Source: a phage. From it: a stretch of 64,000 nt of DNA. Below, piece by piece: positions 3,060 to 5,042 of the stretch. A program made the position numbers and the translations under genes. Position 1 is the stretch's first letter. Each line of letters begins with the position of its first letter. Location: the NCBI GenBank assembly GCA_022520065.1, contig GCA_022520065.1_3942.1; one strand, 5' to 3'. The notes beneath the pieces are model-generated. The model made no database searches and was not told the origin of the DNA. It was given only the letters and a program-made list of their open reading frames with translations.

Positions 3060-3302
3060 ATGCAAACATTAATCGTCGTTGAACATGAAAATTCCAATAG
3101 CATTGAGTTTGTAAGGGTTCCCACTATAGATACCCACATTTTCTTAAAAGTCGGCTGGGAATGTGACCCAATAAGAGTAGAAAAATTTATTGGTCATTGC
3201 TTTGGTGGAAGACAACTTAAAAGTGTTAATTTTGAGACAATGTTACCAGAAAGCTCAGAAACAAATAATAATGCTTACCTCCTTACGAGGGTTAGACAAT
3301 GA
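3060..3302 (+). CDS. hypothetical protein (80 aa)
   Basis: ORF with GAGG RBS 6 nt upstream; immediately after tRNA-Arg. Confidence 0.3.
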   Translation: MQTLIVVEHENSNSIEFVRVPTIDTHIFLKVGWECDPIRVEKFIGHCFGGRQLKSVNFETMLPESSETNNNAYLLTRVRQ

Positions 3303-3856
3303 GATACTTAAAATATGCTTCATGGATTTTCTTAGCTTTGTTAGAGCCATTTGCAGCAATCTTAGCAGTTATCTTAGCACCTTTTGTAGTTCCATTCTAC
3401 AGTGAGAAGAAAGGACACTTACCTTTCGGGTTCAGATGGATGGAGACATATGACAACCCAATTGATGGTGATGAAGGTCACGTTAAAAGATGGGCTAATA
3501 TTAGGTGGATTGGTAAACTAGGTGTCTACATGCAAAGAGTCGGATGGCTCTGGAGAAACAAAGCTTATAACTTCTCTTACCATGTATTAGGAAGAGATGT
3601 AAAAGATGTTACTAAGTGGAAAGGTAATATCAACGTAAGTTCTTACCCCGAAGATAATCAGACAGGTTATCTCCTAATGTGGAACAGTAATGCTTGGGGA
3701 TTATTCGCTTTTATCCCATCAATTAAAATCTTTGGTAAACAATTTTACTGGAGAATTTATATTGGATGGAAACTAAAAAGTGTTGTCCCAGAAGAAAGAG
3801 CATTCTCAAGGGAAAGAGTTATGTTGGCATTCTTTATTCATCCACTGAGAAAGTAA
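3299..3856 (+). CDS. hypothetical membrane protein (185 aa) embedded in tRNA array
   Basis: ATG with GAGG RBS; hydrophobic N-terminus FLALLEPFAAILAVILAPFVVPF. Confidence 0.55.
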   Translation: MRYLKYASWIFLALLEPFAAILAVILAPFVVPFYSEKKGHLPFGFRWMETYDNPIDGDEGHVKRWANIRWIGKLGVYMQRVGWLWRNKAYNFSYHVLGRDVKDVTKWKGNINVSSYPEDNQTGYLLMWNSNAWGLFAFIPSIKIFGKQFYWRIYIGWKLKSVVPEERAFSRERVMLAFFIHPLRK

Positions 3857-3864
3857 AGATTTAA

Positions 3865-3941
3865 AGGGGATTAGTTTACAAGGTTAAAACCTCGGTCTTT
3901 GAAATCGAAGAAGTTGGTTCAATTCCAACATCCCCCGCCAA
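3865..3941 (+). tRNA. tRNA-Gln (anticodon TTG)
   Basis: Acceptor aggggat/atccccc (1:72 mismatch), anticodon arm tcggt-ctttgaa-atcga, T-arm gttgg-ttcaatt-ccaac. Confidence 0.55.
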
Positions 3942-3942
3942 T

Positions 3943-4021
3943 GCTCCATTACTCCAATTGGCAGAGAGGCCAGACTTAAAATCTGTGTTATGTATCGGTT
4001 CGAATCCGATATGGAGTACCA
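3943..4021 (+). tRNA. tRNA with TAA anticodon (Leu-type) but short variable arm
   Basis: Acceptor gctccat/atggagt, D-loop caattggcaga (paralog of the 2883 tRNA), anticodon loop cttaaaa, T-arm atcgg-ttcgaat-ccgat, A73. Confidence 0.45.
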
Positions 4022-4025
4022 AATT

Positions 4026-4101
4026 TAGCGGTATAGCATAACTGGCAATGCAGCAGCCTCTGAAGCTGTCCTATTAAGGTTCAAATCCTTATGCCGCTGC
4101 C
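4026..4101 (+). tRNA. tRNA-Gln (anticodon CTG)
   Basis: Acceptor agcggta/tgccgct, anticodon arm gcagc-ctctgaa-gctgt, T-arm taagg-ttcaaat-cctta. Confidence 0.55.
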
Positions 4102-4133
4102 ACTTCTAAGGATTCTTGCGAGAGTCCTTAAAT

Positions 4134-4209
4134 GTGGCCTTATCATAAATGGTAATGACCCATGCTGTGAACATGGTCTATACGGGTTCAAATCCCGTAG
4201 GTCACCCCA
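4134..4209 (+). tRNA. tRNA-His (anticodon GTG)
   Basis: Acceptor gtggcct/aggtcac, perfect anticodon arm ccatg-ctgtgaa-catgg, T-loop ttcaaat. Confidence 0.6.
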
Positions 4210-4215
4210 ATTTAT

Positions 4216-4291
4216 AGTCCAAGTAGCTTATATGGTTAAAGCGCGTGTCTGAAAAACATGAGAAGAGGGTTCAAATCCCACTGGACTACCA
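4216..4291 (+). tRNA. tRNA-Phe (anticodon GAA)
   Basis: Acceptor agtccaa/ctggact, anticodon arm cgtgt-ctgaaaa-acatg, T-loop ttcaaat. Confidence 0.55.
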
Positions 4292-4307
4292 ATTTCAAAG
4301 GTGCTTA

Positions 4308-5042
4308 ATGAAAGAGATGACAGAACAAGGTAAGGAGATTTTTAATCTCTTAAAAACCGGTAAAGGGTTCTCTAACCCACTGATTACTGGTGCAGCAGTT
4401 CTCGGTGGAACCGTAGCTGCTTCTACATCACTTGTAAGCTCTATTAGTTCTGTAACAGACCCTACAATGAAGGAGAAACTTGTTGCTGCTGGACTTACAA
4501 CAGTCCTTCTAAACAGCTTTACAACAAGCCTTACAAGCACTACAGCAACTACTAAAACTCTGACAGACTACGGTCAAAAGTCTATTGATGAGTTTTCATC
4601 ACGTATGCAGGTAGCAAAGGGGTATTCCAATGTTATGGGTGCAGCAGGAGAACAAGTTGGTTGTACACCATTCAGTGGTATCATGGGTGTTGCTACAGAA
4701 TATGGTCAAAAAGCTATTGATATGATTAACAGTACACTAGAGAGTGTTAACAATGTATTAAGTGACTTACAAGACGCTATTGACAAGGGTCTTGATACTG
4801 TTTCTGATTTAGCTAACCAAGCTGTCAGTAAGATTAATGAAGGTATCTCAAAGATTACAGCTTATGCAGATGAAGTTGTGCAGATGATTGAAGAAGAAGC
4901 TGCCCTTATTGCAGAGTACCTTAAAACGAATATCAATGGGTTCTTAGCAGGTATCTTACCAGACTGGTTTGATGATGCCTGTAAAACTGGTGTAATTGAC
5001 ACTATTGCAACACCAGAAATGAAGAACGCATTACAGAAATAA
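4308..5042 (+). CDS. hypothetical protein (244 aa) embedded in tRNA array
   Basis: Start moved to ATG 4308 (track ORF from 4245 overlaps tRNA-Phe); Ser/Thr-rich N-terminal half. Confidence 0.5.
   Translation: MKEMTEQGKEIFNLLKTGKGFSNPLITGAAVLGGTVAASTSLVSSISSVTDPTMKEKLVAAGLTTVLLNSFTTSLTSTTATTKTLTDYGQKSIDEFSSRMQVAKGYSNVMGAAGEQVGCTPFSGIMGVATEYGQKAIDMINSTLESVNNVLSDLQDAIDKGLDTVSDLANQAVSKINEGISKITAYADEVVQMIEEEAALIAEYLKTNINGFLAGILPDWFDDACKTGVIDTIATPEMKNALQK

Follow-up and report, generated by a model that had tools for sequence, protein, structure and literature searches.

Protein genes are known to lie among the tRNA genes of phages. In the tRNA region of T4, segB and the tRNA.x open reading frames (ORFs) are interspersed among the tRNAs and transcribed with them, and the tRNA array of Felix O1 (NC_005282) contains genes for HNH homing endonucleases. 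Here we describe three ORFs, encoding proteins of 80, 185, and 244 amino acids (aa), embedded in the tRNA array of a Felixounavirus, i.e. a Felix O1-type phage (Table 1). The DNA analysed, hereafter the window, is a stretch of 64,000 nucleotides (nt) (contig GCA_022520065.1_3942.1 of assembly GCA_022520065.1). The two larger ORFs are ORF48 and ORF49 of Felix O1, found at the same positions between the same tRNAs with 95-97% aa identity, and their orthologues are present in >200 Felixounavirus records; Felix O1 differs in lacking the 80-aa ORF and in having HNH homing endonucleases elsewhere in its array. Like segB, the tRNA.x ORFs and the HNH genes, the three ORFs are protein genes among phage tRNAs; unlike segB and the HNH genes they do not encode homing endonucleases, yet they may benefit from endonuclease-driven exchange of the region. 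A second described system resembles the 185-aa protein, a member of family DUF7338: the class III holin T of T4 and the antiholin RI share its layout, in which a single membrane helix precedes a sizeable domain that is probably periplasmic. DUF7338 is optional, as antiholin genes are, and the label 'T4-like lysis system' has already been applied to the gene. Against this likeness, we found no similarity to T (Phage_holin_T) or RI in sequence or fold, and DUF7338 coexists with T in T4-like phages.

Our preferred reading, to which we give as a whole a probability of about 0.5, is that the three ORFs are passenger genes of the tRNA transcript, that DUF7338 is a lysis tuner, that the 244-aa protein (family DUF7217) is a virion-associated or morphogenesis protein, and that the 80-aa protein is accessory. 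The genes themselves are a real but ordinary feature: they are conserved in Felix O1-type phages and already known as hypothetical genes. The two larger ones have been annotated since 2010 and appear in hundreds of records as hypothetical proteins.

All three ORFs are genuine protein genes, as judged from substitution rates, family matches and ORF-length shuffles. The initial annotation had described protein genes with reasonable ribosome-binding sites between the tRNA genes, and both observations hold: the three ORFs lie exactly where it had drawn them, on the plus strand and with ATG starts, 1-18 nt from tRNAs, and the sites AAGAGGA, GAGGG, and AAGGTG are present. Packing is tight, with 18 nt from the end of tRNA-Arg to the 80-aa ORF, an ATGA overlap between the stop of this ORF and the start of the 185-aa ORF, 8 nt from the latter's stop to tRNA-Gln, 16 nt from the end of tRNA-Phe to the 244-aa ORF, and 1 nt from the stop of the 244-aa ORF to tRNA-Ser. 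(An alternative, longer GTG start for this last ORF at 4245 would overlap tRNA-Phe and is unused in most records.) Shuffling positions 1-5300 500 times gave ≥185 codons without a stop on five occasions and ≥244 codons on none; length alone lends no support to the 80-aa ORF. Ratios of nonsynonymous to synonymous substitution rates (dN/dS) against relatives were 0.05-0.11 for the two larger ORFs (0.08-0.11 for the 244-aa ORF) and 0.11-0.28 for the 80-aa ORF, indicating purifying selection; the conservation in related phages whose lack the initial annotation had named as grounds for doubt was found for all three. The homology and structure searches that it had proposed gave Pfam matches far above the gathering score for the two larger proteins, PHROG families of unknown function for all three, and confident AlphaFold2 models for the 185- and 244-aa proteins.

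The 185-aa protein matches DUF7338 (PF24027) with 207.2 bits against a cut-off of 27, with residues 1-184 aligned to positions 1-176 of the 180 in the profile. With 887 clusters at 50% identity (E≤1e-3), the family is large, and nearly all its members are single-domain proteins of 160-200 aa. The hydrophobic N-terminal segment noticed in the initial annotation is the single strong one of the protein (residues 9-27, Kyte-Doolittle 2.38), and the AlphaFold2 model, built on a 35-sequence alignment, has a mean predicted local distance difference test (pLDDT) score of 94.8, with a helix at residues 2-33 followed by a mixed helix/sheet domain of ~150 aa, a confidently modelled domain that has no structural relative. 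Twelve residues are invariant (T50, D52, G57, W83, W85, R86, N87, Y90, R152, G156, W157, and K158) and would mark a conserved surface or site. The mean net charge is +1.7 over the N-terminal flank of the helix and -1.8 over the 25 residues past it. Since these flank charges favour an N-in/C-out orientation, the protein, for which the topology check returned one transmembrane domain (TMD), is probably a single-pass inner-membrane protein with its C-terminal domain outside. One sequence, P0033, in which DUF7338 appears fused to a tail fibre, is known from one 1.1-kb contig only and was treated as a chimera.

The gene neighbourhoods of DUF7338 point to lysis. In ~13-14 of ~35 other lineages (numbered here with the prefix L), lysis genes directly adjoin DUF7338 in the same orientation; this count is a lower bound, most neighbouring genes being unannotated, and we estimate that chance would give a few per cent (for an interval of ~3 kb in genomes of 40-250 kb). 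The order in L104 is tail fibre, assembly protein, DUF7338, a 96-aa one-helix coiled-coil protein, GH108 endolysin, and Rz. In L106, DUF7338 is followed by a 114-aa coiled-coil protein and an M15 peptidase, and in L078 and L073 by a one-helix coiled-coil protein of ~90 aa and a GH24 lysozyme, then in L073 by Rz. The lambdoid L108, whose DUF7338 is 49% identical, has holin_2, lysozyme, i-spanin, LysC, DUF7338, and terminase in this order; DUF7338 precedes holin_4_1 in L084 and holin_8 in L072, and a Hydrolase_2 gene lies ≤1 kb away in L080. A second scan, covering distant members of the family, added GH108 (L123), GH19 (L181), a muramidase (L166), and GH24 (L154), as well as L128, with a 95-aa one-helix coiled-coil protein, an endolysin, and Rz. 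The order DUF7338, small membrane protein, endolysin thus recurs with endolysins as different as GH108, M15 peptidase, GH24, GH19, and, in L128, phrog_669.

The small membrane protein of these cassettes has a possible counterpart in the window. Far from the tRNA array, and unlinked to it, lies the gene of a 123-aa protein that combines a single membrane helix at its N-terminus with a long coiled coil; the protein is 91% identical to gp6 of Shigella phage Sf18, which is annotated 'holin'. Small proteins of this architecture lie directly downstream of DUF7338 in L104, L106, L078, L073, L128, and L129: those of L073, L128, and L129 match by sequence, and the others are alike in architecture only. 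We regard the 123-aa protein as a candidate for the holin, and as a possible partner of DUF7338. As canonical holins sit beside the gene in several cassettes, DUF7338 itself would be an accessory lysis-control membrane protein and not the holin.

The records of phages Mushroom, Michonne, HP1, and SLAM_phiST56 label DUF7338 a holin outright. The announcements of Mushroom and Michonne, from a group specialised in lysis, call it a 'class-III holin (1 TMD; N-in, C-out)', inferred from topology (PMC4392139, PMC4591319). Were this right, the 185-aa protein would be the holin of the phage, of the T4 T type, with one N-in/C-out helix and a large periplasmic domain. The architecture is indeed that of T, and DUF7338 adjoins endolysins in many phages, with no Pfam-recognisable holin in the cassettes of L104, L106, L078, L073, and L128. 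What speaks against it is, first, that the complete genome of Sf18, a lytic phage, has no DUF7338; second, that DUF7338 co-occurs with canonical holins in the L108, L084, and L072 cassettes (holin_2, holin_4_1, and holin_8), and that T4-like KP15 encodes both DUF7338 (KP15_72) and a T holin (KP15_236); and third, that it does not resemble T and that Felix O1-type phages have the 123-aa protein as another candidate. Because of its absence from Sf18 and its coexistence with canonical holins and T, DUF7338 is not the sole holin, and we consider it improbable that it is the holin of this phage. We found no experimental holin work on Felix O1-type phages in the literature, and the 'holin' annotation of the 185-aa protein is unfounded as it stands. 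This correction has some value, as a label that is spreading in the databases rests on topology and conflicts with both observations.

Comparison among relatives suggests that DUF7338 is dispensable and mobile. In the complete genome of Sf18 (Mooglevirus) no DUF7338 homologue could be detected (best tblastn E = 6.9); Sf18 keeps the other two genes, of 80 and 244 aa, and in it the small ORF directly borders tRNA-Gln, at the place where DUF7338 is expected. Among Erwinia phage records, <12 match DUF7338 compared to 33 that match DUF7217. Because Sf18 does without the gene and few Erwinia records have it, DUF7338 appears to be dispensable. Where it is present, its divergence is at odds with that of other genes: against SUSP2, DUF7338 is 95.7% identical (synonymous divergence, dS, 0.41) and the neighbouring DUF7217 83.6% (dS 1.04), and against contig L043, DUF7338 is 87% identical and TerL, the large terminase, only 69%. 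The nucleotide match with L043 runs over exactly 3299-3862 and is limited to the ORF. As these identities exceed those of the genes compared and the L043 similarity is confined to the ORF, the gene appears to move horizontally among virulent enterobacterial myoviruses.

Its destinations are often tRNA genes. DUF7338 is found inside or just downstream of tRNA genes in Ounavirinae, in the Avunavirus-like phage 19-1-2 and contig L044, in T4-like phages, and in Otagovirus. Among the many T4-like genomes concerned, it lies 70 nt after tRNA-Phe in L057 and L061 and 0.2-1 kb past the tRNAs in the others, and in the Pseudomonas Otagovirus phiPsa397 it lies between tRNA-Val and tRNA-Trp at an identity of only 26%. 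For most relatives at ≤42% identity, which come from jumbo phages and metagenomic contigs, the nearest ~10 kb are free of tRNA genes, and the few exceptions have a single one, on the opposite strand and 2.4-8.7 kb away. tRNA arrays thus seem to have served as repeated landing sites for DUF7338. Possible routes are recombination at tRNA sequences, hitch-hiking with homing endonucleases, which are common in Felix O1-type tRNA arrays, and the ready-made transcription that an array offers; we favour none of them.

From the same data one can argue that the 185-aa protein is cargo for superinfection exclusion or envelope protection, like Imm or Sp of T4 or Bor of lambda, and that module boundaries and tRNA arrays merely tolerate insertions. 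This is the main rival to lysis control. The protein is an accessory, horizontally mobile membrane protein that is reported to be expressed early and occurs in virulent phages which are unrelated but share their hosts; many copies are found where the tail-fibre and lysis modules meet or just past the spanins, which is the position of Bor in lambda; and homing endonucleases in tRNA arrays could carry passengers. Several observations speak against lysis control: adjacency to lysis genes is seen in only ~13-14 of the ~35 lineages, and often amounts to the tail-fibre/lysis boundary, a common site of unrelated cargo genes; in the window DUF7338 is near no lysis gene; early expression is unusual for holins; and a periplasmic location is not easily squared with the strongly basic character of the complete C-terminal domain (mean net charge +9). 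However, the arrangement of DUF7338, small membrane protein and endolysin, preserved over five endolysin families, is tighter than expected of random cargo, and there is no similarity to known exclusion proteins. On balance we hold exclusion cargo to be unlikely, if somewhat less so than a holin proper.

We therefore keep lysis control as the preferred reading of DUF7338. The gene would be an optional one, passed horizontally among virulent enterobacterial myoviruses, in which it settles in tRNA regions; in phages that have lysis cassettes it is a neighbour of the cassette. Most likely it would tune lysis as a holin partner or an antiholin-type regulator, rather than as the holin itself, and it may act together with the one-helix coiled-coil protein encoded elsewhere in the window. 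A bolder version is that DUF7338 founds a large class of lysis-control proteins with a novel fold, forming with the one-helix coiled-coil protein a two-part module upstream of the endolysin, and that in virulent enterobacterial myoviruses it has been uncoupled from the cassette and spreads by precise insertion between tRNA genes; this we put forward only tentatively, as a possibility that is more doubtful than not. What the comparison adds is a picture of DUF7338 as an apparently mobile and dispensable membrane protein that is associated with lysis cassettes and has no structural relative. For a widespread family this provides a testable lead, since the gene stands beside at least five endolysin types and at least three holin types and seems to move between tRNAs as an exact ORF-sized unit. 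It bears on how Felix O1-type phages time lysis. These phages are in wide use for typing, biocontrol, and therapy.

The 244-aa protein matches DUF7217 (PF23854) with 292.3 bits against a cut-off of 29, residues 8-243 covering profile positions 2-238 of 238, and its model is an all-helical bundle (pLDDT 93.5). The Ser/Thr-rich N-terminal half reported in the initial annotation is borne out by composition (27% Ser+Thr, compared to 12% in the C-terminal half), and two cysteines, C119 and C225, are invariant in alignments. Identity is 82-98% in Felixounavirus, Suspvirus, and Mooglevirus, 44% in Kolesnikvirus, 38% in the metagenomic contig L110, and 26-29% in ViI-like Ackermannviridae. In L110, too, the gene is flanked by tRNA-His and tRNA-Ser(GCT), the latter 2 nt past the stop, and the Kolesnikvirus copy comes after the final tRNA. 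Downstream, Felix O1-like phages, Kolesnikvirus, and L110 always have a small ORF and TerL. The position of DUF7217 hence looks old.

Functional evidence for the family comes from a single source. ORF129 of the Dickeya phage LIMEstone1, a full-length homologue (26% identity, pairwise E = 5e-27, both cysteines conserved), was found in virions by electrospray ionisation tandem mass spectrometry (2 peptides, 18% coverage) and described as an 'unknown structural protein' (PMC3296691). The authors also state that ViI has a virion counterpart, and place the gene behind a predicted late promoter (PMC3296691). Unlike DUF7217 of the window, ORF129 lies near gp3 and a gene of the SLOG family (Pfam YAcAr), not near tRNAs or terminase. 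DUF7217 belongs to the core genes conserved in both Felix O1-like and ViI-like phages, and most likely encodes a low-copy virion-associated or morphogenesis protein; the 3' end of the tRNA array would have come to surround this gene, which lies next to the packaging genes.

A virion role in the window phage is plausible but unproven, and several points count against it. The LIMEstone1 detection consists of 2 peptides, in a list that also holds rIIB and DNA ligase. The homologue is not among the proteins identified by whole-phage shotgun analysis of Felix O1 (PMC3185647), and DUF7217 is not among the modelled or mass-spectrometry-listed virion proteins of Sf14. In the text examined, the proteome papers on wV8 and VpaE1 say nothing about the proteins described here. 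The Felix O1 paper does report a structural 'Gp49', a major band of 51 kDa speculated to be the sheath (PMC3185647). However, ORF49 has a predicted mass of 25.7 kDa, and gp63, of 48.9 kDa, fits the band better; because of these masses, the 'Gp49' band is probably a numbering slip or mislabel that entered the list of structural proteins. A different role, that of an intracellular membrane-active helical bundle, made early and forming no part of the virion, is in keeping with the missing detections and with early expression of ORF49 in Felix O1 (see below). The LIMEstone1 peptides and late promoter speak for the virion instead, and the 'membrane protein' annotation is weak, because the hydrophobic stretch at residues 25-47 is not conserved in the ViI-like homologues. 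We regard such a bundle as possible, though well short of an even chance. 

Another idea, that DUF7217 is the small terminase subunit, was rejected: the gene lies upstream of TerL in Felix O1-like phages, but in ViI-like phages the homologue lies near gp3, and the annotations place the two terminase subunits elsewhere. DUF7217 also drew PHROG matches to tape-measure families and to phrog_289, 'GTP-binding domain'. In ViI-like phages DUF7217 is always preceded by the small SLOG-family protein, which is annotated 'GTP-binding domain' and has no homologue in the window, and PHROG 289 appears to merge the SLOG and DUF7217 regions in one 500-position profile. A lipoprotein-like DUF7424 gene follows DUF7217 in these phages, on the opposite strand. 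The arrangement was noted at 5131-5553 (minus strand) in L008 and at 6517-6960 (plus strand) in L111.

The 80-aa ORF is found in 70 phage records, with identities as low as 45-52% in Mooglevirus, and is absent from Felix O1, VpaE1, and SUSP2. Where both are present it always lies just upstream of DUF7338, and each also occurs without the other; a homologue with 34% identity is coupled to DUF7338 in the same way in phage 19-1-2 and contig L044. Family and domain matches give no hint of its function, and we describe it as an accessory small protein translationally coupled to DUF7338.

To place the ORFs in a transcription unit we scanned for the sigma-70 consensus and, by pattern, for hairpins. 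A promoter-like site lies just upstream of the first tRNA, and the nearest strong one upstream of the ORFs is of the same sequence type as the Felix O1 promoter 'P45', TTGACA(17)TATAGT (PMC3185647). No strong sigma-70-like site was found directly upstream of any of the three ORFs; the only match near them is a weak one (9/12) at 3243-3272, within the 80-aa ORF. The tRNA/ORF transcription unit probably ends at a terminator-like hairpin with a T-run (5379-5396), which lies after the last tRNA and before the packaging genes. In Felix O1, transcripts measured by reverse transcription PCR (RT-PCR) reach their maximum at 5 min for ORFs 45, 46, 48, and 49, at 25 min for ORF52, and at 60 min for ORFs 51 and 53 (PMC3185647). 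ORFs 51-53 are the genes just beyond the hairpin, and the change from early to late between ORF49 and ORF51-53 fits a boundary there. From the lack of a strong promoter of their own, the hairpin after the array and the RT-PCR timing, the ORFs most likely ride on the tRNA precursor and are co-transcribed with the tRNAs. The shared and probably early unit proposed in the initial annotation is reasonable, and partly supported. In the RT-PCR data, however, the major capsid gene likewise has its maximum at 5 min (PMC3185647), which makes them weak support for an early unit, and the promoter and terminator calls are pattern matches only.

Transcription would then start at the two sigma-70-like promoters, run through tRNAs and ORFs, and end at the terminator-like hairpin. 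Each ORF that follows a tRNA keeps only a Shine-Dalgarno sequence in the 16-18 nt past the CCA end of that tRNA. With such leaders, and with the next tRNA 1-8 nt after the stop, the messages would be translated either from the precursor or from fragments freed by RNase P and 3'-end processing, and RNase P cleavage would leave them with almost no 3' tail. The abutment of tRNA-Ser(GCT) on the DUF7217 stop is 1 nt in the window and 2 nt in L110 (7747-7750), whose protein is 38% identical. Because it is kept at this distance, translation termination and RNase P cleavage share essentially one spot at the junction. The spacer between the last tRNA and the next ORF (5223-5438) contains a promoter-like site at 5298-5326 (TAGACA-N17-TATACT) and, downstream of it, two hairpins, one at 5346-5362 and then the terminator-like one with its T-run; this spacer may mark where regulation passes from the tRNA unit to the late packaging genes.

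Sharing a transcript with tRNAs had led the initial annotation to suggest roles in host takeover or tRNA metabolism, i.e. early factors placed with the tRNAs because they act on these or on translation. Co-location and probable co-transcription, the 5-min maxima in Felix O1, and the recurrence of DUF7338 within or next to the tRNA arrays of at least four phage lineages are what such roles would predict. However, Pfam, NCBIfam, PADLOC, and Protein Data Bank (PDB) sequence searches returned, for the three proteins, no domain that binds or otherwise acts on RNA, no nuclease, ligase, or modification domain, and none for host shut-off. PADLOC and NCBIfam gave coiled-coil noise only; in PDB sequence searches with family profiles DUF7338 gave nothing and DUF7217 only coiled-coil noise. 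Moreover, DUF7338 is a membrane protein whose distant relatives lie next to lysis genes with no tRNAs nearby, and DUF7217 of ViI-like phages is away from tRNAs, behind a predicted late promoter, and found in virions. We consider takeover or tRNA-directed roles very improbable. In the searchable literature we found no paper that names either DUF and no experiment on the DUF7338 or DUF7217 family.

Table 1. Features of the tRNA array, its embedded ORFs and related elements in the window.
Feature	Position	Strand	Evidence or remark
Sigma-70-like promoter match TTGACA-N18-TAAAGT with TG extension	13..42	+	10/12 consensus; just upstream of first tRNA
Sigma-70-like promoter match TTGACA-N17-TATAGT	1413..1441	+	11/12; nearest strong site upstream of the ORFs
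tRNA-Arg(ACG) with encoded CCA end	2966..3041	+	ARAGORN; Rfam tRNA model 59.8 bits; 18 nt before 80-aa ORF
80-aa accessory ORF, phrog_14202	3060..3302	+	PHROG E=1e-40
185-aa DUF7338 protein, Felix O1 ORF48; 'holin' in some records	3299..3856	+	
Five tRNAs: Gln-TTG, Leu-TAA, Gln-CTG, His, Phe	3865..4291	+	ARAGORN, Rfam; between 185- and 244-aa ORFs
244-aa DUF7217 protein, Felix O1 ORF49, all-helical bundle	4308..5042	+	Pfam PF23854; AlphaFold2
tRNA-Ser(GCT) and tRNA-Cys, last tRNAs of the array	5044..5216	+	ARAGORN
Terminator-like GC hairpin, then T-run	5379..5404	+	pattern scan; after last tRNA, before 66-aa ORF and TerL
123-aa protein, one N-terminal membrane helix and long coiled coil	28784..29155	+	Felix O1 gp79-like, phrog_4038

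The surroundings of the ORFs are familiar. Positions 2900-5700 are 96-98% identical to >200 Felix O1-type phage genomes, and the region is the tRNA array well known from Felixounavirus, which precedes the packaging and head genes and is followed by a 66-aa ORF, TerL, and portal in this order. The 66-aa ORF (5439-5639, plus strand), acidic and directly upstream of TerL, is 100% identical within the genus and 33-56% in other genera; no small terminase has so far been identified in the Felix O1-type group. ARAGORN called 26 tRNA genes at 69-5216, all on the plus strand, of which 24 reach the Rfam tRNA gathering score. The two that fall below it are tRNA-Met(CAT) and tRNA-Tyr(GTA), at 322-398 and 562-649, respectively, and the Felix O1 paper likewise marks its own Tyr gene as a pseudo-tRNA (PMC3185647). 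Four gaps of 240-430 nt in the array (733-1163, 1398-1644, 1722-1959, and 2050-2303) are devoid of convincing genes. Their counterparts in Felix O1 and SLAM_phiST56 are occupied by HNH homing endonuclease genes, and those of the window may be empty or decayed insertion sites.

Some database records with Felix O1-type DNA carry other names. 'Staphylococcus phage SA1' and 'Campylobacter phage A132' contain such DNA with 96-97% identity to the window, which suggests chimeric or contaminated assemblies, and phage P54 is labelled Tequatrovirus, yet its genome is of the Felix O1 type (accessions GU169904, MG065664, and PV390658 cover these three records).

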